Shown: positions 1,316 to 59,735, counted from the stretch's first letter. The stretch is 64,000 nt of DNA from Candidatus Kaiserbacteria bacterium (GCA_031430855.1 JANPCG010000013.1:26347-90346); one strand, 5' to 3'. The notes: a model not told the origin generated them from the letters alone. Translations and numbers: made by a program.

Positions 1316-2200
1316 TTATATGGTGCTCGTAGCGGTAGTTGTCGAAACGTCAGTTGAGGTGGCGCTGGTATCAGTAGGAGGGGTATCGTTTGCGGTCTTG
1401 GTCTCACGGTATTCTGTACCAAGGTAAGTCGCCGCTGTAATAATTCTATATGTTTCGCCGATTGCTAATATGGCTTTAGTAATATTTCCGCTCGCTACGG
1501 CTGGTTCTACGCGGTCAAGATAGTTTTCACTACTCCGCATCGTGCTGGTTGAAAAATCTGTGACGGCGAGTGCCTGTTCTACAGTTTGGAGTTGTTCCGT
1601 CAAATAGGTATAGGCTGTTTCTACTGATTCGGTCGCAACAAAACTCTCGGCCCGATCACGGTAGAGACGTACTGCCTCTTGACGAATGTCTTCCATGCTA
1701 TCTCCTGCGCGGAGCAGTTTGGGATCATTTTCGGTTAATTCTTCCATTGCTGAAGCGATACCGGCAAACTCATTGACGGTATTGAGGAGGTCTGTTTTAG
1801 GGAACGCGCTGTCAATTGATGAGCTTGCAATAGATGAGAGGCTGTTCCAGTGTGAGGTTGAATTTTTCATTAACACATCGAGAGCGGCATCAGACACAGT
1901 ATCTGCAAAGGTAAGCTGCTTTGCTTCTGCAAAGCGTTTCTGAAGTAAGGTAACTTGGTACGAGGCCTTACTAGCACTCCGCACATGGGTAGCTTCAATT
2001 CCTGTTTCGAGTACATTTGTTTTAAGTCCATATAAAGCTTCTCCTGGAAGGCTTTGTAGCGTCGCATAAACGCCAATCGAAAGACCAATAATGATAACTA
2101 TACTAATAACACCGATTGGGCGGGTGAGACGTAGTGGTCGGGAAGGGTTTGTGGGTAACGGTTCATGGATATTTTCGTCAGATTGTGGTGTTGTGGTCAT
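1316..2200 (-). CDS. Hypothetical single-pass membrane protein
   Basis: ORF with one N-terminal TM segment (IGVISIVIIIGLSIGVYATL) and a Thr-rich C-terminus. No recognised catalytic motif. Confidence 0.45.
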   Translation of the reverse strand: MTTTPQSDENIHEPLPTNPSRPLRLTRPIGVISIVIIIGLSIGVYATLQSLPGEALYGLKTNVLETGIEATHVRSASKASYQVTLLQKRFAEAKQLTFADTVSDAALDVLMKNSTSHWNSLSSIASSSIDSAFPKTDLLNTVNEFAGIASAMEELTENDPKLLRAGDSMEDIRQEAVRLYRDRAESFVATESVETAYTYLTEQLQTVEQALAVTDFSTSTMRSSENYLDRVEPAVASGNITKAILAIGETYRIITAATYLGTEYRETKTANDTPPTDTSATSTDVSTTTATSTI

Positions 2201-21242: not shown

Positions 21243-21620
21243 ATGCTCGATGGTAAGACGGATGGTTCTTTTGCTGACATCGCGCGTCAGTTGAGCGCCA
21301 ACAACAGCACGGCTGCGTTTGGTCGACTGATGGAAATGATGTATCAGGTTCAGTTTCTGTCACCAGAGGAAGTTGTTCCTCTCTGGCGCGTCTTGTACCT
21401 GATTCATCCGACTCTGCCTGCTAATTCCGTCGAGTGGAATGCCTGCAAGCAGATGCGTGATCTGGCCTGGGTGAGAATGCTCGACATCCTCCATTCCGCA
21501 GATTTCTATGACTACAACACGACGCAGGTCAGGGCAATCATTGGCGAATATTCGGAAAAGCCGGTGGAAAAAACTCGGACGAAGCTTCGATTCCTCGCTC
21601 ACGTGTTTGGCAGGAGATGA
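21243..21620 (+). CDS. Hypothetical protein with compositionally atypical (higher GC) sequence
   Basis: 125-aa ORF. GC-rich third positions unlike its neighbours. Confidence 0.4.
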   Translation: MLDGKTDGSFADIARQLSANNSTAAFGRLMEMMYQVQFLSPEEVVPLWRVLYLIHPTLPANSVEWNACKQMRDLAWVRMLDILHSADFYDYNTTQVRAIIGEYSEKPVEKTRTKLRFLAHVFGRR

Positions 21621-33000: not shown

Positions 33001-33144
33001 CGATGTTCTCCGGGATGGTTGATGCGCAGGGGATCCCTGTTCTCAATGTATCATAGCATAAAAGTCTTAATAAGACAACATCTTTATAAAAAAGCAATAG
33101 ACTTTGTAAAGTCATTGTCAGATAAAATGTATATACAAGGGAAT

Positions 33145-33176
33145 AAAAAAAGGGCGCCACACGTGCGCCCTTTCGG
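33145..33176 (-). terminator. Terminator of the GC-rich gene
   Basis: aaaaaaagggcgc-cacacg-tgcgccctttcgg. Confidence 0.55.
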
Positions 33177-33212
33177 TGCTTATGTGACGACCTAGGGTCG
33201 TGGCAGCCTGAT

Positions 33213-34061
33213 TCAGGCGGCCTTGGTTTCTTTGTCCGTCGACTCGCCGACTTCGGCTTCGTCGATTGGGTCAAGGATCTTGGCCGAGATGATCGTGCCG
33301 ATACCTTTCTGCTGCATCTTGAGCAGAACACGACGAGGGTCGCCGTCACCGTATGCGGCGATTGCTTGCCGCACTTCTTCTTCCACCTTGGCGCGAATGG
33401 GATCGTCCAGTGCAGCAAGGGTCGCGATCTGGTCGGCCGTCAGGTCGCCGGTATACGGCTCGGCGGACATTTCGGCTCGGCGCCCGCGTACCATCGACTG
33501 CAGCATTGCCATGAAGTCAGACGGTCCGTTTTCTTCGTCACCTGCAGCTGCGAGGACATCGAATTCGACGTCCGCGCCATCCTTGATAGCTGTGGTCTTG
33601 ATTCGGCTGGGGTCGTTGTTCGCCCGCGAGGCGATTAGCTTCCGTAACGCTTCTTCCACCTCGGTCTGAATGTCTTCATTCGCTTCGGCAAGGGTCGCGA
33701 TCTGGTCGGCCGTCAGGTCGCCTGCGTACGGTTCGACTTCTTTTTCGCGCAGCATCGCCCGCATCATGGTAGCGAACGGGCTGAGGTTCTTTTCCCGGTC
33801 TGGGGAGAAGGCATCCTCAAACAGCTGCTCCATAAAACCGCCGAGGTTCGGTCCCTTCGACGACTTTGGACGCTGGTCCGATTTGCCGTCGAGTTTGCCG
33901 GCCTTCTTGATCTTCTTCAGGCGTTTCTTAGCGCCTTTTTCGATCATGTGCGTGAACATGCTCTTTTGCGCTTCGCTGAGCGAATCAGAGAAGACTTTGG
34001 CGCAGATACATCCTTCGCCGCAGCCGATTCCAGCCGCTGCCATCATTTTGGTAAGGTTCAT
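33213..34061 (-). CDS. Hypothetical protein with internal tandem repeat, markedly GC-rich relative to the window
   Basis: 282-aa ORF with N-terminal GIGCGEGCICAK. Two ~45-aa repeats (EPY[AT]GDLTADQIATLA...) are encoded by near-identical 36-nt DNA segments. GC3 is high. Confidence 0.5.
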   Translation of the reverse strand: MNLTKMMAAAGIGCGEGCICAKVFSDSLSEAQKSMFTHMIEKGAKKRLKKIKKAGKLDGKSDQRPKSSKGPNLGGFMEQLFEDAFSPDREKNLSPFATMMRAMLREKEVEPYAGDLTADQIATLAEANEDIQTEVEEALRKLIASRANNDPSRIKTTAIKDGADVEFDVLAAAGDEENGPSDFMAMLQSMVRGRRAEMSAEPYTGDLTADQIATLAALDDPIRAKVEEEVRQAIAAYGDGDPRRVLLKMQQKGIGTIISAKILDPIDEAEVGESTDKETKAA

Positions 34062-48120: not shown

Positions 48121-48669
48121 ATGACAGTAACTACCCGGAGCCGTTTTGCAGTACCTGAATTAATCGTGAGTCATTTTCATGTTCGTGATGGAGATTTGGT
48201 AGCAGATTTTGGCGCTGGGGCCGGTGAATATGTCCCACACTTGGTTAAAAAAGTTGGACCCCGCGGACGGGTGTATGCGTGCGAAATACAACGAACCTTG
48301 GTAGATAAAATTGGCACCTTAATTCGAGAAAAAGGCTACCATAATGTTGATCCTCTTTGGTGTGATATCGAAGCTGACCGGGGAATAAAAATTGCCGACG
48401 AGACACTCGATGTGGCGATTCTAGTAAATACTTTATTTCAACTTGAACAAAAAGAAAAAGCTATCCAGGAAAAAAGACGGACCCTGCGGACTGGTGGTGT
48501 AATCTACGTCGTTGATTGGGAGGAGTCTTTTGGGGGCGTTGGTCCCCATCCAAATTGTGTGGTTTGTAAACAAGTCGCTATCAATCTTTTTGAATCCTGC
48601 GGTTTTGTGCTTGAGCGTGAATACCCGGCGGGTGAATATCATTATGGGCTAGCCTTTCGGGTTATATGA
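48121..48669 (+). CDS. Class I SAM-dependent methyltransferase
   Basis: Motif I LVADFGAGAGEY. Confidence 0.7.
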   Translation: MTVTTRSRFAVPELIVSHFHVRDGDLVADFGAGAGEYVPHLVKKVGPRGRVYACEIQRTLVDKIGTLIREKGYHNVDPLWCDIEADRGIKIADETLDVAILVNTLFQLEQKEKAIQEKRRTLRTGGVIYVVDWEESFGGVGPHPNCVVCKQVAINLFESCGFVLEREYPAGEYHYGLAFRVI

Positions 48670-49973
48670 TGAAGCTGCGTCCTTTTGAATTAGCGTTGGT
48701 GTGTATCTTTAGTGCGCTTATTCTCGTGGCGTTATATTTGATGGCCAACCCCAACATGAGCAACAATAAGCTTCCGCCCCAATTTGGTACTTCGGTCGTT
48801 ATTTGGGGTACTGAGCCACAGGCCGCCTTTCAAGCCGTGTTTGACGGGATTCAAGACGTTAATGAAGATTTTGAAGTAGTGTCCTACGTGCAAAAGGATG
48901 CGCGCACCTTTGATAATGAGGTTATTAATGCGCTAGCTGAAAATCGCGGTCCAGATATTCTTTTCCTACCCCACGAAAAACTCCTCCAGTATCGGAGCAA
49001 AATCCAACCCCTGTCTGAACAAACCCTTCCCGTGCCGGATTTTAAGCGAAATTTTATTGATGGATCCGAGATCTTTATTTTACCGGATGGTATCTATGCG
49101 TTCCCGGCAGCAGTTGATCCATTAGTGCTATACTTTAATCGCGATATCCTCAGTACCAAAAATTTTATCAACCCTCCGGCTACGTGGGAGTCAGTTGTCA
49201 ATGAGTTAGTTCCGAGTCTCGTTGAGCGTGATTTTGGGAGAAATATAATCCGAAGTCCGCTCGCGTTTGGGGAGTATCGTAACGTAACCAACGCCTTTGA
49301 CATAATCTCAATGCTATTTTTGCAGGGGGGGAGTGGGCTGGTTGTTCAAGTGGGAAATAACTACCGTATTCAACTCAATCAAAGTCTGAGTGGCATCGGG
49401 GTGCCGCTTCAAAATGCGGTCACGTTCTATACAAATTTTGCGAGTCCGAGTAACCCACTCTATAGTTGGAATCGGGCCCAAGGGAACGACCGAGAAGAAT
49501 TTTTAGGCGAGGAGCTTGCTTTGTACTTTGGCAAGGGGAGCGAAGCTCGTGATATTGCCGTTGATAATCCGAACCTAAATTTCGACATTGCCGAAGTACC
49601 ACAAGGAGCCGCCGCCACTGTCCGGCGTACGTATGGTACCGTATATGGCTTTACCTTATTGCGGTCAGCCCAGAATCCAGCTGGAGCAGTACAGACGATG
49701 TATGAACTGACCAAGCCAGCTAATAGCGTTCTCTTGGCCAATAATCTCACGATGGCGCCGGCTAGTCGCTCTGGATTAAGTAGTGGTTCAAATGATGAGT
49801 ATGGTAGAGTAATTTACAGCGCTGCAACTGTAGCGCGCGGCTGGCTCAACCCGGAACCGCAAGTAGCCAATGACATCTTTACACAAATGGTGGAGGATGT
49901 TCTCGCAAACCGAGCCCGGCCGAGCGATGCTGCAGTAGATGCGGTTGGACGGTTGCGTGATGTGTATAAATAG
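48666..49973 (+). CDS. Membrane-anchored extracellular solute-binding-protein-like protein
   Basis: N-terminal TM segment followed by an SBP_bac_1-like periplasmic domain pattern. Low certainty. Confidence 0.4.
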   Translation: MMKLRPFELALVCIFSALILVALYLMANPNMSNNKLPPQFGTSVVIWGTEPQAAFQAVFDGIQDVNEDFEVVSYVQKDARTFDNEVINALAENRGPDILFLPHEKLLQYRSKIQPLSEQTLPVPDFKRNFIDGSEIFILPDGIYAFPAAVDPLVLYFNRDILSTKNFINPPATWESVVNELVPSLVERDFGRNIIRSPLAFGEYRNVTNAFDIISMLFLQGGSGLVVQVGNNYRIQLNQSLSGIGVPLQNAVTFYTNFASPSNPLYSWNRAQGNDREEFLGEELALYFGKGSEARDIAVDNPNLNFDIAEVPQGAAATVRRTYGTVYGFTLLRSAQNPAGAVQTMYELTKPANSVLLANNLTMAPASRSGLSSGSNDEYGRVIYSAATVARGWLNPEPQVANDIFTQMVEDVLANRARPSDAAVDAVGRLRDVYK

Positions 49974-49974
49974 T

Positions 49975-50385
49975 ATGGTTAAAACATTTTTTTCAAAAAT
50001 TTATTTCTTAGGGCTACTAGCTCTGCTTTCTGTACAATCAGTATATGCACAAGGGACAGGTGGCGGTAGTGCAGGCAGTGGTGGTACTGGCGGTGGCGGC
50101 GCAGGCTCGGTACGAATGGAGAACTATCTCTCGGTAGATACTATTCAAGACCTACTTGTTGCAATTCTCAATATCGTTATTATTTTGATGATTCCAATCA
50201 TTGTGTTCTTTATCATTCTGGCTGGTTTCAAATACGTGACGGCGCGCGGTAACGCGTCCCAGGTCGAGGAAGCAACGCGAGCGCTTACCTATGCGATTAT
50301 CGGCGGCGTCTTAGTGCTTGGTGCGGTGGCTCTCAGTGAGATTATTGCAAACGTCGTTGGACAATTTTCTAATACTACTCCATGA
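49975..50385 (+). CDS. T4SS-pilin-like (TrbC/VirB2-like) small membrane protein, paralog 1
   Basis: Signal peptide, Gly-rich linker, then TM-loop(KYVTARGNASQVEEATR)-TM. Confidence 0.5.
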   Translation: MVKTFFSKIYFLGLLALLSVQSVYAQGTGGGSAGSGGTGGGGAGSVRMENYLSVDTIQDLLVAILNIVIILMIPIIVFFIILAGFKYVTARGNASQVEEATRALTYAIIGGVLVLGAVALSEIIANVVGQFSNTTP

Positions 50386-50642
50386 CCCCTTCAACTCCTA
50401 CTACTTTAGCAGAACTCGTAAACTTTATCATTGGTCTCATCAACCAGTTTATCCCGCTGTTAATTGCAATCACGTTTTTATTTATCGTGTGGAAACTGAT
50501 TGACGCCTGGATAATTCACGCTGATGATGAAACGCGGCGAAGTGATGGCAAAATGATTGCCTTTGTAGGCTTTGTGGTGGTTTTTATAATGATTAGTATC
50601 TGGGGAATCCTGTCGTTTCTTCAATCAACGTTGGCCGGCTAA
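50382..50642 (+). CDS. T4SS-pilin-like small membrane protein, paralog 2
   Basis: TM-loop(HADDETRRSDGK)-TM. Its start overlaps the paralog 1 stop. Confidence 0.45.
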   Translation: MTPSTPTTLAELVNFIIGLINQFIPLLIAITFLFIVWKLIDAWIIHADDETRRSDGKMIAFVGFVVVFIMISIWGILSFLQSTLAG

Positions 50643-50732
50643 AGTTGTACACAGCCCCCTAAAAACCCTTTATGGTAAACGTTTTTTAGTGTATACTGTA
50701 GGGAATTAATATTTTATTTAATTAATTACGTC

Positions 50733-51110
50733 ATGAAAAAAATTCTGTCATTATTAGGTGTATTTGCCCTCGCGGTTGTGCCTGCGATTACTTCAGCACA
50801 GATTGTGGACGGTTCTGCGGGTGATCTCGGAACAACCATCTCTGGTCTCGTTGATATTATCAATACGTATTTGATTCCGTTTGTTCTTGCCCTCGCTTTC
50901 CTCGTGTTTGTGTGGGGTATGTTCAAATTTTTTATCCTTGGCGGTGCCAATGATGAAGCGAAAGAATCAGGCAAGAGTTTGATTATCTATGCTTTGGCTG
51001 GATTTGTACTCATTGTTATCTTCTGGGGACTTGTTAACTTCTTGGTTGACCTCATCGGAGTTGATACGGCGGGACCAATTACACCACCGACAGGACCGAC
51101 GGTACCGTAA
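50733..51110 (+). CDS. T4SS-pilin-like small membrane protein, paralog 3
   Basis: Sec signal peptide (cleavage near AITSAQ), then TM-loop(GGANDEAKESGK)-TM and a Pro-rich tail. Confidence 0.5.
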   Translation: MKKILSLLGVFALAVVPAITSAQIVDGSAGDLGTTISGLVDIINTYLIPFVLALAFLVFVWGMFKFFILGGANDEAKESGKSLIIYALAGFVLIVIFWGLVNFLVDLIGVDTAGPITPPTGPTVP

Positions 51111-51146
51111 GCTGGTACGGCGAAGAATTCAAAAAAACTGCACAGG

Positions 51147-51524
51147 GTGCAGTTTTTTTGTGCTAGTTTCGCTGATATACTAAATACTATGATATTTACG
51201 ACCGCCTACGCTGCGAGCCCTGGAGCCGCCGAAACTGCCGAATTTGTTTTTCAGTTTAATGAAATTATTCTTTTCCCGGTAATTGTTTTGCTTACAACGA
51301 TTGCTCTTCTCGTCTTCCTTTATGGCTGTTTTATTTTTGTCGTCAATGCTGATAATCCATCTGGTCGAGAAGACGGAAGGCGGCATATCCTCTACGGTAT
51401 TATTGGTATGCTCGTGATGCTTATGGCGTACACGATCCTAACAGTAGCTGCCAACACTTTTGGACTAGATCGTGAATTAAATTGCGCTGATGATCCGACA
51501 TTAAGTGGCTGTTTTACCCCATAG
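51147..51524 (+). CDS. T4SS-pilin-like small membrane protein, paralog 4
   Basis: Signal-like N-terminus, then TM-loop(NADNPSGREDGRRH)-TM. Alternative start MIFTTAYAA at 51189. Confidence 0.45.
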   Translation: MQFFCASFADILNTMIFTTAYAASPGAAETAEFVFQFNEIILFPVIVLLTTIALLVFLYGCFIFVVNADNPSGREDGRRHILYGIIGMLVMLMAYTILTVAANTFGLDRELNCADDPTLSGCFTP

Positions 51525-51601
51525 TGTAAAAAAGAAACCCCCCGCTGGCCAAGATGGCACGTGCGGGGGGGGTTGAAGGTCCTTCGATTCGTCTGAAGAA
51601 C

Positions 51602-52564
51602 TTAAAGACAGCTGTTGCTACCAATCCGCCGTTCGGGGCTGATTACGACAACAGCTTCGCTGTCGTTGCGAAACCGGATCTGGTGTTGTTCTGGTTTCCA
51701 TCCCACCATCCACACGTTGTTCTTGTCTGCTGACAAGAGAGTAGGGTAGGGTCCACCAGTTACGTCCCAGTAGATGCAGCTGCCAATGAAATCGGTAATT
51801 GCAAGCGATTCTTGCCCCGGCTCGAGAGTAATCGGGGCGATGTATCCGTAAACCTTGCGGTCGACGGGTACATAGTTGGTTGTGGCTGAAGCGGGAGCAG
51901 AAACAGAGTCCCCGTCTTCTTTTCCTTCGAGCGTCTGGACGACCGATTCGGTCGCCCCGTCGATGACGGTGCCGACCCGAACGAGGGTGGGCGACGTGCT
52001 CGCGAGTGCCAAGAAGGCAACCCCGGCACAGTAGATCAGGACGCCACCAACGAGCCACTTGCCCGTGGTGATCCGGTAGAACTGCAGCAGTACCATCGCG
52101 GTGAGCGACGCTGCTGCTACATTGAAGAATGCACCAGGGCTGTTCGAGAAGGACCAGGTTGCGAGAAATCCCGCAATGATGAACCACCCGAGCAGCAATC
52201 CCCAGATGACCCGGCCAAGCATGGAAATGCCGCCAGCCATACCTTGCGAGATGTCGCGATCGTTGAGGAAGGCAGCAACACCACCAAGGGTGGTCGCGGC
52301 AGTAACGGCCCCAAGTGAGGTCGACACGGCCACGATTCCGATGGCGCCGAGGAAGAAGGGAATCAGGTTGATTCCCATCAAGCCGAAGACGTTCAGAATC
52401 CACATCACCAAGGTCACGATGACCAGGGCGATAAGGATGAAAGTGGTGAAGGCCATTCCCATGATGTTGGCGTGACCGATGGATTTCCTGATGTTTTGTC
52501 CAACTCCCGGACGGGGGTTGGACGCTACAACAAGTGCGGTGCCGGTACGAGGAGGAGTAGTCAT
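51602..52564 (-). CDS. Polytopic membrane protein with C-terminal extracytoplasmic domain, GC-rich (possible VirB6/TrbL-like)
   Basis: 320 aa with about 6 TM helices. GC content is well above the window average. It is convergent with the pilin-like array. Confidence 0.45.
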   Translation of the reverse strand: MTTPPRTGTALVVASNPRPGVGQNIRKSIGHANIMGMAFTTFILIALVIVTLVMWILNVFGLMGINLIPFFLGAIGIVAVSTSLGAVTAATTLGGVAAFLNDRDISQGMAGGISMLGRVIWGLLLGWFIIAGFLATWSFSNSPGAFFNVAAASLTAMVLLQFYRITTGKWLVGGVLIYCAGVAFLALASTSPTLVRVGTVIDGATESVVQTLEGKEDGDSVSAPASATTNYVPVDRKVYGYIAPITLEPGQESLAITDFIGSCIYWDVTGGPYPTLLSADKNNVWMVGWKPEQHQIRFRNDSEAVVVISPERRIGSNSCL

Positions 52565-52576
52565 TGGTGTTTCCTT

Positions 52577-53287
52577 TCAGAATGGATTGAAACGCGACAT
52601 GATGCGATAGAGGAACCCTTTGGGCTTCTCCTCGATCTTCTGTGCGTAATTGTTGATGTGTTGTTTGATACCTTCAGTCGGGTTGGCGCCGAGAATCCTC
52701 TTCTGCCAGTCCTCGATGGTGTCGATGTAGTCTTTTTCGCCCGGAGCGGGCATGCGTGGCAGTTGCGTCAAGTCGAAGTAGCTGAGCACCTTAAGGTAGC
52801 CCTCTTCTTCGTTTGGTGCGGTTTCAATCATCTCCACCACACTGATTATCCAATCCTTGGCGTGGTTTGTTTTGACCGAGAAAATCTGTTTGACCTCCTC
52901 GATCTTTTTCTGTTCGGCGTCTTTGGCGCCTGAAGTGACAGTTGTCTTCTTTTCACCAATCGAGACCTTTTGGTCCCAGCTGGTGATAAAGAGTCGCAGC
53001 TCTTTCAGTTTGCGCTCAGCTTTGATGGCACGCAGGCCAGTGTGCCCCTTATAGTTCTTGTTTATGAACCATCCCCAGCGAGCCAACACTTTTGGCTTGA
53101 GTTCAGAATGCAGCGTTTCAAGCTGGTGTTCGTCACCGTACCCTTTGCCAAAACCGCCAACGGCAGTTTCAGCTGCGCCAGCAGCCTTTTTGCCGAATAA
53201 TCCGGTTACCATGTCCCAGATGGAGTTTCCATGGGAGAGGGCAAGCATGCCTTCGGTCAGAAAGCCCTTAAACCGTTCGTTTGCCAT
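52577..53287 (-). CDS. Hypothetical protein, co-oriented and adjacent to the GC-rich membrane protein
   Basis: 236-aa ORF with no recognised motif. Confidence 0.4.
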   Translation of the reverse strand: MANERFKGFLTEGMLALSHGNSIWDMVTGLFGKKAAGAAETAVGGFGKGYGDEHQLETLHSELKPKVLARWGWFINKNYKGHTGLRAIKAERKLKELRLFITSWDQKVSIGEKKTTVTSGAKDAEQKKIEEVKQIFSVKTNHAKDWIISVVEMIETAPNEEEGYLKVLSYFDLTQLPRMPAPGEKDYIDTIEDWQKRILGANPTEGIKQHINNYAQKIEEKPKGFLYRIMSRFNPF

Positions 53288-53595
53288 GATATGGCTCCTT
53301 TGTGTTTATGTTGTCAACGAGCGAGACTCGTCGGTATGGTTGGGGTTTTCTGCAGTGGTACTTGTCCAGGCAGTAGTCGCCCCTTCTGCTACTATAATAG
53401 CATAAATAACTCTAAAAGTCAAGTTATGGGTAGCTAAACGAGCTATAAATAGCAACGTTAATTTGATGTTGTACATAACGTGAGCGACATGAGTACCGGC
53501 AAGACCTGTATAGAAGGCGAGGTTCTGCGTTAGTGATGAATATTGGAGTTGCGGTGCTGGTTACTGCGCGGTATCATTCCGGCACAATAGTTTAT

Positions 53596-54676: not shown

Positions 54677-56191
54677 ATGGATACGAAAGGGTCTAATCCG
54701 AAGCGAATTACCTCTGTGTACTATGATGGGAGCTGTCCAATGTGTACGGCGTTTGTGGGAGCTACCGCGGCCAAAGACGAGACCTTATTTGCACTCCATG
54801 ATGTCATCATTGATTCACTGCCTGCAGACTTCACCAGAGAAGCGGTCCTGAAGGAAATGCATGTCGTTGGTGCCGATGGGACAGTATATACCAACGCCGA
54901 GGCGATACTGCAGATATTAGATACGGTGCAGTATTGGCGACGAATCACCTGGATTGGACGACTGCCGGTGGTGCGGAATGTATTGCCGGTGGGGTACGGT
55001 ATTGTGGCGCGTAACCGACACTTTATTTTCGGACCCGCGAGCCGGTTGTTTTGGGTGAAGAATGTCGCTTTGCTGGGGCTACTCTCCAGTATGGCGCTGT
55101 CGTTTCCTTTGTGGGTGCAAACGGATAGTATTGCAGCGGTACCTGTCTTTGGTCGACTTCCAATTCTCTCACCGTTAATTGAATGGGGAATGTATATAGG
55201 GGTGTTTTGTTTAGCCTTGGTTAGTTTGATTTCGCCTAGGCCACAGCGTTACTTGTGTGGACTATTGGGTATTGTGGCGGTATTTGTACTGTTTGATCAA
55301 TTGCGTCTTCAGCCATGGCTCTATCAGTATTGGTTTATGCTACTGCCACTTGCTGTGTATTCGTGGCAGTGGCGAGATAGGGTATCGACGAATGCGGTTC
55401 TCAATACCCTCCGGATTTTAATTGCGGGGATATATTTTTATAGTGGGCTACAGAAAATTAACCCAATGTTTTTCCAAGAGGTGTTTCCCTGGATGGTAGA
55501 ACCAATTGCCGCGTTTCTCCCGACCTCTCTTAATTTAATACCAGCGAGTTTTGGATTATTTGTCCCGTTTATTGAAATAGGGATTGGTATAGGATTGCTT
55601 ACAAAACGATTTAGGTTTGCTGCTTTGGTTGGAGTTATTTGCATGATGGTATTCGTTCTCATCACACTTGGACCTCTTGGTTATGGTTGGAATAGTGTCG
55701 TCTGGCCATGGAATTTAGCTATAGCGGCGTCAGCGTGGCTGTTGTATTACAAGACCGCTAATGTTTCTTTTAAAAACGTATTTAGAGTAAGGCACTTTCT
55801 GCCTCATAAAGTAATCATTTTACTTTTTCTTGTAATGCCTGCCTTCAGCTTTTTTGGGTATTGGGATTCGTACCCATCCTATTCGTTGTATTCGGGGAAC
55901 ATAACTGACGCCCAAGTATTCGTATCATCTAAATTGGTAAGTCCAGCTTTAGAAAATGCAGCGTTTTTAGCTTATGGTGGTATGGTCTGGATAGACCTCC
56001 AGACACTTTCGTTTAATGAACGTAATGTGCCGATGTATCCTGAGACAAGAATCTACACGAAAGTATTTGCTCAGCTATGTGAGACTGAGTTGCCAGTCAC
56101 GGCTGAACTCGTCGTGACGACCAAAACCACGTTGCTGCAACCCCAGAGAGAATTACGGTATAAGTGTGAAAATATGTTGAGTAGTGATTGA
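54677..56191 (+). CDS. DCC-family thiol-disulfide oxidoreductase (DUF393) fused to an HTTM-like polytopic membrane domain
   Basis: N-terminal VYYDGSCPMC (DCC motif), then ~10 TM helices rich in Trp and Tyr. Confidence 0.5.
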   Translation: MDTKGSNPKRITSVYYDGSCPMCTAFVGATAAKDETLFALHDVIIDSLPADFTREAVLKEMHVVGADGTVYTNAEAILQILDTVQYWRRITWIGRLPVVRNVLPVGYGIVARNRHFIFGPASRLFWVKNVALLGLLSSMALSFPLWVQTDSIAAVPVFGRLPILSPLIEWGMYIGVFCLALVSLISPRPQRYLCGLLGIVAVFVLFDQLRLQPWLYQYWFMLLPLAVYSWQWRDRVSTNAVLNTLRILIAGIYFYSGLQKINPMFFQEVFPWMVEPIAAFLPTSLNLIPASFGLFVPFIEIGIGIGLLTKRFRFAALVGVICMMVFVLITLGPLGYGWNSVVWPWNLAIAASAWLLYYKTANVSFKNVFRVRHFLPHKVIILLFLVMPAFSFFGYWDSYPSYSLYSGNITDAQVFVSSKLVSPALENAAFLAYGGMVWIDLQTLSFNERNVPMYPETRIYTKVFAQLCETELPVTAELVVTTKTTLLQPQRELRYKCENMLSSD

Positions 56192-56485: not shown

Positions 56486-56509
56486 ATTTTGTTTGTAAAC
56501 CTTTCAAAG

Positions 56510-56591
56510 TGCGCGCGAGAGGACTTGAACCTCCACGGATTGCTCCATTAGTTCCTAAGACTAACGCGGCTACCAATTACGCCACACGCGC
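56510..56591 (-). tRNA. tRNA-Leu (anticodon TAG)
   Basis: Class-II tRNA. Acceptor GCGCGTG/CGCGCGC (one G-U pair), anticodon arm ttagt-ctTAGga-actaa, long variable arm, T-loop GGTTCAAGTCC. Confidence 0.85.
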
Positions 56592-56672
56592 ACTTTGAAA
56601 ACTTTACTGTGTCGACGAGTATAGCATGAAAATAGGGGTTTGCCAGGGTTGGTGGTCGCACCAAGATTCTGT

Positions 56673-56767
56673 GGTCACAGATAATTTCTTTCATAAATTT
56701 CCGCGACCCGAGAAACAGTGTTTAGACACTGTTTCTCCCACTGTCGCAGGGCGACATGTCTCCGTCT
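56673..56767 (+). repeat. Modular intergenic repeat, units A'(short)+B+C
   Basis: ggtcacagataatttctttcataaatttccgcgaccc + gagaaacagtgtttagacactgtttctcc + cactgtcgcagggcgacatgtctccgtct. Confidence 0.55.
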
Positions 56768-56780
56768 CGCACCAGAGCAC

Positions 56781-56845
56781 GTATCTGCCGCAGGGCAGAT
56801 ACCAAACAATAAATACCATTCATTTGAATGGTATTTTATTGTTTG
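56781..56845 (-). terminator. GCAG-loop hairpin plus 19-bp perfect hairpin terminator of tRNA-Lys
   Basis: gtatctgcc-GCAG-ggcagatac, then caaacaataaataccattc-attt-gaatggtattttattgtttg. Confidence 0.55.
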
Positions 56846-56848
56846 CTC

Positions 56849-56924
56849 TGGTGCGCCCTCAAGGATTCGAACCTTGGACCGTCTCCTTAAGAGGGAGCTA
56901 CTCTACCAACTGAGTTAAGGGCGC
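56849..56924 (-). tRNA. tRNA-Lys (anticodon CTT), CCA encoded
   Basis: Acceptor GCGCCCT/AGGGCGC, D-loop AGTTGGTA, anticodon loop ctCTTaa, T-loop GGTTCGAATCC, 3' ACCA. Confidence 0.8.
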
Positions 56925-57000
56925 ATTGCTATGTATTAGTACATACGACCCGGCGTTCTTAATGAGGGCAAAGTGCATGGGATGCAGTTTGCGCGACACT

Positions 57001-57020
57001 ACTGAGTTAAGGGTGCAATG
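57001..57020 (-). repeat. Partial copy of the tRNA-Lys 5' acceptor/D-arm segment
   Basis: actgagttaagggtgcaatg, compared with actgagttaagggcgcattg at 56909-56928 (18 of 20 identical). Confidence 0.45.
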
Positions 57021-57090
57021 TATTAAGTTGTGGGCCAAAGTGTACAAGATTATGACCAAATTAACAAGGTATTAGTAGGGGCGTGACTTG

Positions 57091-57186
57091 GTCGCAAATC
57101 ACTAAGTATATTTGTTCACTTCGTTCCAAATTTACTAAGTGTTTGCGACCCCGACTCAACTGTCGCAGAGCGACATGTTTCCGTCT
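57091..57186 (+). repeat. Modular intergenic repeat, units A+C
   Basis: ggtcgcaaatcactaagtatatttgttcacttcgttccaaatttactaagtgtttgcgacc + caactgtcgcagagcgacatgtttccgtct. Confidence 0.55.
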
Positions 57187-57299
57187 TTCAAGTCCCGCAC
57201 GCAAGCAAAGCAGTTTGCTTGCTCCCCGGCACAAAATACAACTACCGCAAGCTATTGCTTGCGGTAGTTGTATTTTGTGCCGGGGAGCGGGACTTGAAC
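57187..57299. repeat. ~110-nt palindrome made of two inverted copies of the tRNA-Leu(TAA) T-arm/acceptor 3' segment around a perfect 19-bp hairpin
   Basis: Left arm ttcaagtcccgc[gcaagcaaa-GCAG-tttgcttgc]tccccggcac. Centre aaaatacaactaccgcaagc-tatt-gcttgcggtagttgtatttt. Right arm gtgccggggagcgggacttgaa. Confidence 0.55.
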
Positions 57300-57316
57300 A
57301 TTACATGTTCGGTACA
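57277..57316 (-). repeat. Partial direct copy of the tRNA-Leu(TAA) 3' end (23 nt) plus junction palindrome
   Basis: gtgccggggagcgggacttgaac, compared with the tRNA's gtgccgggagcgggacttgaac. It is followed by ATTACATGTTCGGTACA. Confidence 0.6.
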
Positions 57317-57429
57317 GGTTGTCGCCACTTTACTTCGCTTCCAGCTCATAAAGTTGCAGGCAACCTTTTCAAGTCCCTGGGGCAAATGCAAAAACTCCCC
57401 AGATAAAAATCTGAAGAGTTTTTACATTG

Positions 57430-57513
57430 TGCCGGGAGCGGGACTTGAACCCGCACGGGCTTGCGCCCACAAAATTTTAAGTCTTGCGTGGCTACCGATT
57501 ACACCATCCCGGC
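57430..57513 (-). tRNA. tRNA-Leu (anticodon TAA)
   Basis: Class-II tRNA. Acceptor GCCGGGA/TCCCGGC, anticodon arm caaga-ctTAAaa-ttttg, variable arm with a GCAA tetraloop, T-loop GGTTCAAGTCC. Confidence 0.85.
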
Positions 57514-57618
57514 ACTGACTTTTTTATGGAATCTTCCGTTACACGGACCGTATCCGTTGTCGCTATATTATTTCACTTCGTTCATAATCTAGCAGCCAAC
57601 AGCTTCGATTCCCTTGTC

Positions 57619-57662
57619 ATATCTAAAACAAAACATAAAGAAATATGTTTTGTTTTAGATAT
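57619..57662 (-). terminator. Perfect 19-bp hairpin terminator abutting the tRNA-Cys 3' end
   Basis: atatctaaaacaaaacata-aagaaa-tatgttttgttttagatat. Confidence 0.55.
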
Positions 57663-57663
57663 G

Positions 57664-57735
57664 AGACCGGGACGGGAATCGAACCCGTGCATCGAGGTTT
57701 TGCAAACCACTGCGTTACCGCTTCGCCACCCGGTC
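57664..57735 (-). tRNA. tRNA-Cys (anticodon GCA)
   Basis: Acceptor GACCGGG/CCCGGTC, anticodon loop ttGCAaa, T-loop GGTTCGATTCC, discriminator U. One U.U mismatch in the anticodon stem. Confidence 0.75.
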
Positions 57736-58235: not shown

Positions 58236-59735
58236 TTACGTTATCACAATTTCAAAGCCTTCGATAAGATCGCCGGGGGCGATTTCGGTTTTAGAATCAA
58301 CCTGCATACCAAATTCGCTCTCAGATACCTGCTTCACATCTGATTTTTGTTGCTGTAGGTTTTTAATCACTCCTCGCCCAACTTCAATATCACGGCGGGT
58401 GATGAGAACGCTCTGACCTAATTTCATAATGCCGTCCTCGACCCGAGCTCCTAGTACGTGTGTATATTTTTGGGTACTGAAATGTTTGATAACCTTCGCG
58501 TGACCAGTGACGACGCGCTCTTCCATCTTTGGGGTACGGTTTTTAAGTGCCGTATTAAGCCAATCGGACAATTCATAAATAATCGAAAAGGTGTCAATTT
58601 CTACTCCCTGACGTTCTGCGAGGTCTACTGCCGCTCGGTCGACAGTAACATTAAAGCCAACGATAATAGCGTCTTTTGTTGCGCTCACATTGCGGACGTC
58701 ACTTTCTGAAATTGAACCAACTCCAGTATCAATCACTCGGACAGAAATGCGATCTGATTCGAAGTTACCGAGTTCGTAGAGAATGGCATCAATCGTGCCG
58801 AGCATATCAGCTTTAATCAAGATTGGAATGGTTGGGAGATTGGTTTTTTTGTGGGTCACAATTGGAGCTGCATCAGTTCCGGAAATTGCCGATTCGGCTT
58901 CTTTTTTAGAGTCCACTGTGTAGAACGTGCTGCCGGCTTTTGGAATGCTATTAAAACCAACAATCCCAACCGGAGTAGAGAGCCCGGCCTCTTTGAGACT
59001 TTTTCCATTACTGTCTTCCATGATACGTACGGGAGCAAAGCTGTGTCCCGAAACCACAAACTGTCCTGCCTTGAGGGTACCGTTCGTGACAATAAGAGTA
59101 GCGGTATTGCCGCGTTTTGGATCAAGATTTCCGTCGATGATGGTTCCAGTGGCCGCTGCGTTTAGGTCTCCGGTGAGTTCTCCCAAGTCTGCAGCTAAAA
59201 TAATCAAATCGAGTAAATCACTTACACCGGCACCGGTTTTAGCTGAAATTGCTGCCCAGGGAATATCCCCCCCCATCCCTTCGATGTAAATTTCATTTTC
59301 AATGAGACTCGCTTGAGTCCGAGGAATGTCGGCTCCTGGTTTATCCATTTTGTTAATGGCAACAATCATCGGAATACCAGCGGCTTTAATGGATTCAAGC
59401 GCCTCAAGTGTCTGTGGCTTAACTCCGTCTTCAGCGGAAACGACTAATATGGCAATATCAGCCACGTCAGCGCCTCGGAGACGCATTTTTTGGAACGCAG
59501 CATGACCGGGAGTATCGAGAAATGTGATGCTTTCAGTAGCTCCGTCTTTAGTAGTATGAGGAACCACGTAGGCTGAGAGGTGTTGGGTGATGCCGCCGGC
59601 TTCACCATCTACCACATTACTCTTTCGGATATAGTCCAAAAGGGTTGATTTTCCGTGGTCAATATGACCCATAACCACCACAATAGGTGGCCGTTTGGTG
59701 ATTGCGGGTGCTGCAGTTTTTGTTTTTTTCGCCAT
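58236..59735 (-). CDS. infB: Translation initiation factor IF-2 (short form, ~499 aa)
   Basis: GTPase G1 [25 protein letters not shown], plus domains II-IV. No long N-terminal extension. Confidence 0.9.

Follow-up and report, generated by a model that had tools for sequence, protein, structure and literature searches.

A tandem array of four pilin-like genes

The sequence analysed here is a stretch of 64,000 nucleotides from Candidatus Kaiserbacteria bacterium (GCA_031430855.1, JANPCG010000013.1:26347-90346), referred to below as the window. It contains a tandem array of four small genes on the plus strand, which we call pil1 to pil4, and two minus-strand genes that converge on them. A first-pass annotation, made from the sequence, had described the four small products as pilin-like proteins of a type IV secretion system (T4SS) and the whole group as a possible remnant of a conjugative island. 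All six open reading frames (ORFs) that it named, four on the plus strand and two convergent, were recovered with identical coordinates. The array comprises the following features.

49975-50385, plus strand: pil1, class-1 pilin-like protein, 136 amino acids (aa)
50382-50642, plus strand: pil2, class-2 pilin-like protein, 86 aa, leaderless
50733-51110, plus strand: pil3, class-3 pilin-like protein, 125 aa
51131-51159, plus strand: terminator-like hairpin between pil3 and pil4, consisting of an A-run, CTGCAC-AGG-GTGCAG and a T-run (sequence and our own scan)
51189-51524, plus strand: pil4, class-4 pilin-like protein, 111 aa from the ATG

Hydropathy windows and alignment placed two hydrophobic segments in each of the four proteins, with a charged loop between them. 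This bears out the small, two-helix, loop-bearing architecture that had been described and is the layout typical of PF18895 proteins. The accompanying claim that all four proteins begin with a leader was only partly upheld: by hydropathy, a signal-like N-terminus is added in pil1 and pil3 but missing from pil2, and the leader of pil4 is ambiguous. In pil1, the signal-like segment runs to VYA (followed by QG) and precedes a Gly-rich linker, helix 1, the loop ARGNASQVEEATR and helix 2. In pil3, the equivalent segment runs to TSA (followed by QI) and the loop is GGANDEAKESGK. The pil4 product has a short N-terminal segment (MIFTTAYAA), the loop NPSGREDGRRH and, in its C-terminal tail, two Cys residues spaced as C-x8-GC. 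The most likely start of pil4 is the ATG at 51189, which was also chosen by the gene callers of the public assemblies; starting at an alternative GTG at 51147 would give a protein of 125 aa, and this GTG falls within the terminator-like hairpin.

The reading frames of pil1 and pil2 overlap by 4 bp. An extended −10-like element, TGTATACT, can be read from the sequence ∼40 bp 5′ of pil3, and the hairpin at 51131-51159 is followed on its 3′ side by an AT-rich stretch and then by the pil4 ATG. A local hidden Markov model (HMM), run against the window and the flanking loci with every ORF down to 45 aa included, returned pil1 to pil4 and no fifth pilin-like gene.

Relationship of the small proteins to T4SS pilin families

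The gathering cut-offs are 26.6 bits for PF18895 (T4SS_pilin) and 27.9 bits for PF04956 (TrbC/VirB2), and the curated cut-off of NF045849 is 40 bits. Both pil1 (37.9 bits, E 1.8e-9) and pil3 (36.4 bits, E 5.5e-9) scored above the PF18895 cut-off, and the host, judged by syntenic relatives with 41–65% identity, is a Patescibacterium. Matches to the other two families stayed below threshold: for PF04956, pil1 reached 21.5 bits (E 2.7e-4) and pil4 10.5 bits, with no match for pil2 or pil3; for NF045849, pil1 reached 27.8, pil3 32.1 and pil4 28.4 bits. The NCBIfam search also returned a sub-threshold match to TIGR03758, which like NF045849 is a pilin-like family of integrative and conjugative elements (ICEs).

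To place these scores in context we used a sample of 46 pilins of all four classes, taken from the window and from the equivalent arrays of related genomes, and counted matches at E <= 1e-3. PF18895 was matched by 43 of the 46 (best E 9.8e-11) and the PF04956 TrbC model by 10 (best E 6e-7). NF045849 was matched by 44, over nearly the full 80-position model (best E 3.9e-10); the NF045849 scores given in full were 25–32 bits (25.4 for one orthologue), all below the 40-bit cut-off. Precomputed PF18895 matches also exist for pil2 orthologues of 86 and 84 aa.

The four paralogs had been called related but divergent, and both descriptions hold. Pairwise identity within pil1 to pil4 is 15–28%, while comparison of the classes with hhalign gave probabilities of 71–99.5%. 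The closest ties were those between classes 2 and 3 (99.5%, E 2e-22), 3 and 4 (99.0%) and 2 and 4 (98.1%), followed by those of class 1 with classes 3 (94.3%), 4 (87.3%) and 2 (71.3%).

As judged by these profile comparisons, pil1 to pil4 are genuine members of the VirB2/TrbC superfamily and belong to the Pfam family PF18895, and the resemblance to PF04956 itself is one at the superfamily level only. The TrbC/VirB2-type, pilin-like identity proposed by the first-pass annotation is thereby retained. For the alternative that it had offered, a bacteriocin-like family, we found nothing in support.

Four paralogous classes in a fixed order

To examine how the array varies, one genome per species was scanned by alignment of the binding-protein-like gene that adjoins it, giving 58 loci with 41–65% identity. 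Each pilin at these loci could be assigned to one of the four paralogs of the window with a margin of at least 24 bits. The gene order was always 1-2-3-4, with no permutation among the 58 loci. The array pattern was 1234 at 25 loci, 112334 at nine, 12334 at eight, 1123334 at four, 123334 at three and 11234 at one; the other loci had incomplete arrays (123, 1123, 12 or 1), mostly ending at a contig edge. The number of pilin copies varies from 4 to 7 between species, with duplication limited to class 1 (1 to 11) and class 3 (3 to 33 or 333), the latter being duplicated most often.

The classes differ in kind as well as in position. Class 1 proteins, which come first at every locus, have a signal-like leader and a variable low-complexity linker. 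Class 2 proteins are mostly leaderless, always lie between classes 1 and 3, and have an N-terminus that coincides with the predicted mature end of the few class 2 copies with a leader. Class 3 proteins have the loop GGAN[DE]EAKE.GKS and a variable tail. Class 4 is always last, and its tail contains two Cys residues in 30 of 46 class 4 proteins, compared with 0 or 1 protein in each other class. Within classes, the N-terminal linker and the C-terminal tails vary among orthologues, whereas the core can be strictly conserved: that of pil3 is identical to the core of its orthologue at locus L007, from a species whose binding-protein-like protein is only 70% identical to that of the window.

The internal terminator is a further constant. 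In our own scan, a hairpin followed by a T-run lay 3′ of the last class 3 gene at 46 of 49 loci, compared with 2 of 53 class 2-to-3 junctions and 7 of 54 class 1-to-2 junctions.

The four paralogs are ancient classes, conserved gene by gene across species. An alternative is that they form a set of interchangeable major pilins that serve antigenic or host-range variation, as has been proposed for the VirB2 paralogs of Bartonella and Anaplasma and suggested for Patescibacteria (PMC12102498). The low identity between paralogs, the variable copy number and the differing linkers and tails are what such a pool would predict. Against it, however, each class is conserved across species in a position that never changes, the pil3 core has stayed identical where the neighbouring binding-protein-like gene has diverged, leaderless proteins stand beside signal-bearing ones, the Cys-pair tail is restricted to class 4, and only classes 1 and 3 are ever duplicated. 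We therefore give the interchangeable pool no more than an outside chance. The fixed classes in their fixed order, their differences in kind, the conservation within classes, the internal terminator and the gene spacing instead lead us to infer a set of subfunctionalised subunits, of which class 3 would be the abundant one.

Genomic context of the array

The array is preceded on the same strand by two further genes.

48121-48669, plus strand: class I S-adenosylmethionine-dependent methyltransferase, 182 aa (Pfam Methyltransf_31/11/25, E ~1e-10)
48666-49973, plus strand: membrane-anchored, MalE-type substrate-binding-like protein, 435 aa

The methyltransferase gene is the first of the apparent operon; its stop overlaps the next start by 4 bp, and it lies directly 5′ of the binding-protein-like gene at all 58 loci. 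That gene in turn always abuts the first pilin gene, its stop in the window lying 1 bp before the start of pil1. Its product has an N-terminal hydrophobic anchor at approximately residues 2–31 (hydropathy), matched NCBIfam MalE below the cut-off (E 4.7e-6) and retrieved MalE-type proteins in a PDB profile search (E 1e-4 to 1e-9), and its orthologues match Pfam SBP_bac_8 and SBP_bac_1. No ABC permease adjoins the gene.

Every locus of sufficient length shares one layout: gyrA, the methyltransferase gene, the binding-protein-like gene, four to seven pilin genes on the same strand, a gap of 2–3.3 kb and a rhodanese gene. The loci are titled Candidatus Kaiserbacteria, Paceibacteria, Nomurabacteria and Parcubacteria, plus some third-party annotation (TPA) entries titled Saccharibacteria, and many metagenomic contigs carry these pilins with the same neighbours. 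The TPA entries, titled ‘uncultured Candidatus Saccharibacteria bacterium’, account for 16 of the 58 collinear loci; they have 41–49% identity and the layout of Kaiserbacteria/Paceibacteria, and the titles may be generic or wrong. We also noted that one 126.7-kb contig (CAXRCZ010000007.1) carries the whole locus twice, in opposite orientation near its ends and with identical gene coordinates (L030, 5000-24292, and L073, 102425-121717), which may be an artefact of assembly or else a large inverted duplication.

The window otherwise consists of housekeeping DNA, with genes for GyrA, IF-2, ClpB, LepA, MurJ, GlmS, FtsZ, FtsA and TsaD and nine tRNA genes. The first-pass annotation had seen no VirB4 or relaxase in it, and this was borne out, as every ORF of at least 499 aa is a non-T4SS gene (a TPR protein, MurJ, LepA, a class I tRNA synthetase, GlmS, GyrA, a DCC1-DoxX protein, IF-2 and ClpB); mid-sized ORFs include TsaD, FtsZ, FtsA, a TrxB-like protein and others. 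The flanks, where it had suggested that such genes be sought, did not supply them either: no VirB4, relaxase or integrase was found in the 64-kb window or within 10 kb beyond either end. Within 9 kb of the binding-protein-like gene, ORFs of at least 450 aa that encode a Walker A motif were lacking at all 58 loci. The genes adjacent to the array and to the convergent pair are housekeeping genes, and no tRNA gene abuts either.

As for the hallmarks of an integrative or conjugative element, there was no integrase, relaxase or coupling protein, and the locus was collinear in all 58 species-level genomes. Because of this collinear layout and the lack of an integrase, relaxase or VirB4 nearby, the array is a core, vertically inherited operon, unlinked from T4SS machinery, and not the relic of an island.

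The convergent gene pair

The genes that face the array had been described as a polytopic membrane protein and a co-transcribed soluble protein. Both ORFs were confirmed, with 12 bp between them, and are accompanied by a terminator-like and a promoter-like site.

51528-51572, minus strand: intrinsic-terminator-like hairpin, stem CCCCCCGC/GCGGGGGG followed by UUUCUUUUUU, in the 77-bp gap between the convergent operons
51602-52564, minus strand: polytopic membrane protein of an unannotated family, 320 aa
52577-53287, minus strand: soluble partner with no hydrophobic segment, 236 aa, 5′ of the membrane protein gene in the same operon
53394-53422, minus strand: promoter-like site, TTGACT, 17-nt spacer and TG-TATTAT, ∼107 bp 5′ of the 236-aa gene

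The RNA of 51520-51605 (minus strand) folded with −30.3 kcal/mol (z −3.96), and none of 200 shuffled sequences was as good. The promoter-like site has 10 of 12 consensus matches and the extended −10 TG and is the best in the region, as a consensus match only.

Neither protein had a match in Pfam, NCBIfam or PHROGs, and word-indexed searches of 5.8 billion proteins found only four to five relatives. The five relatives of the 236-aa protein are 47–100% identical to it; four, for which the context could be seen, come from the same type of locus, and the fifth (P0007) is on a 990-bp contig. A full HMM search with three orthologues of the 320-aa protein was more productive, giving 116 representatives among 1.84 billion proteins. 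Nearly all of these match profile positions ∼28–180 (i.e. the membrane domain) only, where the family has the motifs L.D.D.SQG and AG.LATWSF..P.AF; the C-termini cannot be aligned and often end in Cys. The 320-aa protein itself has a conserved helical membrane domain at approximately residues 22–212, with at least five membrane helices, and a hypervariable hydrophilic C-terminal domain of ∼110 aa with a Cys at its end. By the positive-inside rule, the C-terminal domain is probably outside the cell.

AlphaFold2 (AF2) modelling of the membrane protein from 54 sequences gave predicted local distance difference test (pLDDT) values of >90 for residues 41–160 and <50 for the C-terminal domain. The AF2 model of the 236-aa protein, from five sequences, consisted of helices only and, with a pLDDT of 54, was too poor for a fold search; the protein is probably all-alpha. 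A PDB profile search with it was empty.

The 320-aa protein had been put forward as possibly VirB6/TrbL-like. This identity was rejected: despite the confident model of the membrane domain, Foldseek found no match at E <= 0.001 in PDB or BFVD, and the PDB sequence-profile search was as empty as those of Pfam, NCBIfam and PHROGs.

Wherever the context could be seen, the membrane-protein family occurs only at this type of locus (18 loci with the family detected, plus close relatives), and three further members with 28–31% identity, found through the family itself, have the same context. Most other species have a convergent membrane protein and partner at the same position, from varying families. 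Some of the alternative partners seem faintly SPFH-like, though the hint is a weak one (Band_7, E 0.028).

The C-terminal domain appears to be exchanged independently of its anchor. A close relative encodes a 229-aa protein that has a different membrane anchor and partner, but whose last ∼90 residues are ∼90% identical to the C-terminal domain of the window; over the 124 residues that align, the identity is 72%. At the DNA level there is 79% identity over 474 nt, covering the 3′ end of pil4, the intergenic terminator and the C-terminal domain and ending at the domain boundary. In contrast, where the membrane domain has its closest orthologues (72% identity), the C-termini are unrelated. Sharing of one C-terminal domain with another anchor, together with unrelated C-termini on the same membrane domain, identifies the gene as a mosaic.

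When locus L079 (1-1307, Logan ERR14949363) was compared with window positions 51404-51876, this close relative proved to keep pil4, the terminator and the C-terminal domain with 79% DNA identity, and to have a different anchor and a different partner gene, both related to those of loci L043 and L060. On this alignment, the recombination breakpoint lies at the domain boundary.

A separate observation concerns locus L010 (GCA_043719095.1), where the rhodanese gene and the convergent pair are separated by two small genes (1545-2086, plus strand; 90 and 84 aa) that the window does not have; inspected by eye, their products resemble an antitoxin of the RelB/DinJ type and a toxin of the RelE/ParE type.

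We read the convergent pair as a variable envelope or host-interaction module that has its own promoter-like site and terminator, and not as VirB6.

Base composition of the convergent pair

The convergent genes had also been noted as GC-rich, which they are: the GC content is 0.567 for the 320-aa gene and 0.506 for the 236-aa gene, against 0.462 for the window. At third codon positions (GC3) the values are 0.670 and 0.633, against a window mean of 0.443 (standard deviation 0.073, 61 ORFs). The pair thus ranks second and third among the 61 ORFs, 2.6–3.1 standard deviations above the mean. The excess is mainly in C-ending codons, with C at 0.44 of third positions in the membrane protein gene compared with 0.21–0.23 in gyrA and the binding-protein-like gene. 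Within the membrane protein gene, GC3 falls from 0.715 for the conserved membrane domain to 0.595 for the variable one. The pilin genes, with a GC3 of 0.38–0.46, match the host, and across species are slightly below their neighbours.

The first-pass annotation had treated the GC-richness as a possible sign of foreign origin. The same excess, however, was present in the equivalent pair of 32 of 36 species (mean +0.117; paired Wilcoxon p 2e-8, a value that overstates the evidence as the species are not independent). Recent import is therefore an unlikely cause, and the excess appears old and gene-specific. Possible explanations are codon optimisation that goes with high expression, and biased gene conversion linked to recombination.

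The highest GC3 in the window (0.693, z 3.4) is that of a 282-aa ORF at 33213-34061 (minus strand) with no significant Pfam match. This ORF has an internal duplication of ∼45 residues (EPYAGDLTADQIATLAEANEDIQ... and EPYTGDLTADQIATLAALDDPIR...) and is part of the second GC-rich patch in the window (33001-34000, GC 0.546). The fourth GC3 outlier is a 125-aa ORF at 21243-21620 (plus strand; GC3 0.603, z 2.2), also with no Pfam match. All the GC3 outliers of the window (i.e. the pair and these two ORFs) are genes with no assigned function.

Other features of the window

Directly 3′ of the rhodanese (UPF0176/TrhO-like) gene, at 54677-56191 (plus strand), is a gene for a 504-aa fusion of a DCC1-like thiol-disulfide oxidoreductase domain with a polytopic DoxX/MauE-like membrane domain. 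Four clustered tRNA genes (Leu-TAG, Lys-CTT, Leu-TAA and Cys-GCA) occupy 56509-57735 (minus strand). The IF-2 encoded at 58236-59735 (minus strand) is unusually short (499 aa), apparently with no long N-terminal region.

A model for the locus

A large part of bacterial diversity belongs to the Patescibacteria, which are dependent on host cells. Our preferred reading, to which we assign a probability of about 0.7, is that the array encodes four old, non-interchangeable classes of the VirB2/TrbC superfamily, held in an inherited core operon of Paceibacteria and acting as subunits of a T4SS pilus or conduit, and that the convergent pair is a separate envelope operon. The core operon would comprise the genes for the methyltransferase and the membrane-anchored MalE-like protein, then pil1, pil2, pil3, the terminator and pil4. 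Most likely, the pilins would be subunits of the pilus, or of an envelope conduit, of the patescibacterial T4SS of the mating-pair formation (MPF) FATA type. The T4SS itself would be encoded elsewhere, in Paceibacteria usually near dnaA, and is thought to serve attachment to host cells or exchange with them. Class 3, with its own −10-like element, a terminator after it and the most frequent duplication, may be the abundant or major subunit. Classes 1, 2 and 4 may be specialised or minor subunits, marked respectively by a long variable linker, the lack of a leader and a Cys-pair tail. The convergent operon would contribute a membrane protein with a recombining, probably surface-exposed C-terminal domain, and its soluble partner.

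Several points weigh against this reading. By themselves, pil4 (22.0 bits) and pil2 (13.4 bits) each fall below the PF18895 cut-off, and they are counted as family members because of the hhalign ties of classes 2 and 4 to class 3. The label ‘pilin’ of PF18895 is itself only a prediction, a sequence search of PDB with the pilins found no solved pilin, and according to reviews no pilus or extracellular fibre has been shown for any Patescibacterium (PMC12857230, PMC11665869). As no T4SS machinery was found at the locus, it is family membership and the literature that connect the array with a T4SS. The division into major and minor subunits is drawn from gene architecture only. Finally, in small genomes conserved synteny is no proof of a joint function with the pilins, be it for the methyltransferase, the binding-protein-like gene or the convergent pair; two other neighbours, gyrA and the rhodanese gene, show just as much conservation.

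The last of these points bears equally on the proposal that the pilin-like proteins form a T4SS-independent envelope complex with the MalE-like protein, the convergent membrane protein or both, for example in uptake or adhesion. Tight translational coupling from the methyltransferase gene through the binding-protein-like gene to pil1 and pil2, the separation of the array from virB4 in all 58 species examined and the presence of the membrane-protein family at this locus wherever its context was seen would all fit such a complex. We nevertheless consider it unlikely, since the only functional data for the pilin family point to a T4SS cluster (PMC10633639), the sequence similarity reaches both TrbC/VirB2 and the pilin-like family of Mycoplasma ICEs, and the neighbours may have been kept through inherited synteny alone. 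Very improbable is the first-pass proposal that the array and the GC-rich pair are the remains of an inserted conjugative element or T4SS island: the pilin-family HMM matches, the sub-threshold likeness to the ICE families NF045849 and TIGR03758 and the high GC3 of the pair speak for it, but the same gene order recurs between the same housekeeping genes in 58 species-level genomes, the pilin classes are orthologous gene by gene and their GC3 is at or below that of their neighbours, the GC3 excess of the pair recurs across species, and the window and flanks hold no integrase, relaxase or VirB4 and no tRNA gene at the edge of the array or pair.

The reading of four subunit classes in a core operon could be extended to the whole locus, which would then be a class-wide host-interaction apparatus of Paceibacteria, made up of the methyltransferase, the MalE-like protein, a four-class heteromeric fibre or conduit and the convergent membrane protein. 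We regard this as speculative and rather doubtful. If true, the apparatus would be a previously unrecognised system in which the shuffled, exposed C-terminal domain sets host specificity; the persistent bias of the pair towards C-ending codons would stem from frequent recombination or from very high expression; and the likeness of nearly all the pilins to the Mycoplasma ICE family would mean that they arrived with the monoderm MPF-FATA system and were not borrowed from diderms.

On the preferred reading of four inherited pilin classes, the locus adds no new kind of system. The ordered and conserved set of four classes in Paceibacteria points to a heteromeric assembly with one abundant subunit, not a pool of variants, and the mosaic membrane protein may serve as a variable surface determinant. 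In the sole species tested, the patescibacterial T4SS and its pilin array are essential.

Comparison with known systems

Quinonero-Coronel et al. searched 3,035 Patescibacteria genomes with PF18895 and PF04956 and reported, for 383 assemblies, 441 arrays that each comprise 2–11 VirB2-like pilin genes and within which identity averages ∼25% (PMC12102498). VirB4 was present in 2,417 of the 3,035 genomes, nested in the monoderm MPF-FATA class, which includes the Tenericutes; in Paceibacteria its gene is usually near dnaA, and proximity of pilin genes to virB4 was limited to 1,135 of 1,948 assemblies (PMC12102498). The same study treated VirB2-like pilins as absent from the monoderm MPF-FATA class (PMC12102498), and a T4SS review discusses a possible pilus in a monoderm (PMC12857230). 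Functionally, Wang et al. found a T4SS cluster and pilin genes to be essential for epibiotic growth of Southlakia epibionticum (PMC10633639), and Kuroda et al. counted T4SS pilins among those Paceibacterales genes of unknown function that have the highest expression (PMC10936435).

Tandem arrays of divergent VirB2-like pilins are therefore already published for the phylum, and the array of the window is a further case. We compared it with the six-gene array of Southlakia epibionticum ML1, the ‘Sec secreted array’ of Nanosynbacter lyticus TM7x and the 441 surveyed arrays (PMC12102498). Common to the window and these patescibacterial arrays are PF18895, tandem two-helix proteins, a chromosomal location with no relaxase nearby and very low identity between paralogs (15–28% in the window, ∼25% on average in the surveyed arrays). 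The Southlakia array, however, lies in a T4SS cluster, whereas that of the window is beside gyrA, follows the methyltransferase and MalE-like genes and has no adjacent virB4 or other T4SS gene. The window array is from Paceibacteria, while the surveyed arrays reach their highest abundance in Microgenomatia and Saccharimonadia. The papers cited here do not describe fixed classes that keep one order across species; these classes, the conserved terminator and the sub-threshold likeness of 44 of 46 pilins to the Mycoplasma ICE family go beyond what those papers contain.

The proteins resemble TrbC/VirB2 (PF04956) of diderm T4SSs in having a leader, two hydrophobic helices, a short basic loop and weak direct HMM similarity. 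They differ in scoring under the PF04956 cut-off, in their monoderm host, in lacking a VirB5/VirB7/VirB9/VirB10 context and in comprising four classes where the diderm systems have one major pilin.

For the 320-aa protein, the likeness to VirB6/TrbL, including the ‘extended’ forms, is one of general plan: at least five membrane helices, a hydrophilic C-terminal domain and a place beside pilin genes. No similarity to them in sequence, profile or fold was found, however, and the protein is encoded convergently behind its own promoter-like site, in a family found only at this Paceibacteria locus.

A further family for comparison is NF045849, the Mbov_0395/MMCAP2_0565 family of pilin-like conjugal transfer proteins of Mycoplasma ICEs. 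In both cases the hosts have no outer membrane, and the match covers nearly the full model. The pilins of the window are nevertheless below the cut-off and so are non-members, and they are multiplied chromosomal core genes, not carried on an ICE. This resemblance may bear on the origin of the patescibacterial pilins.

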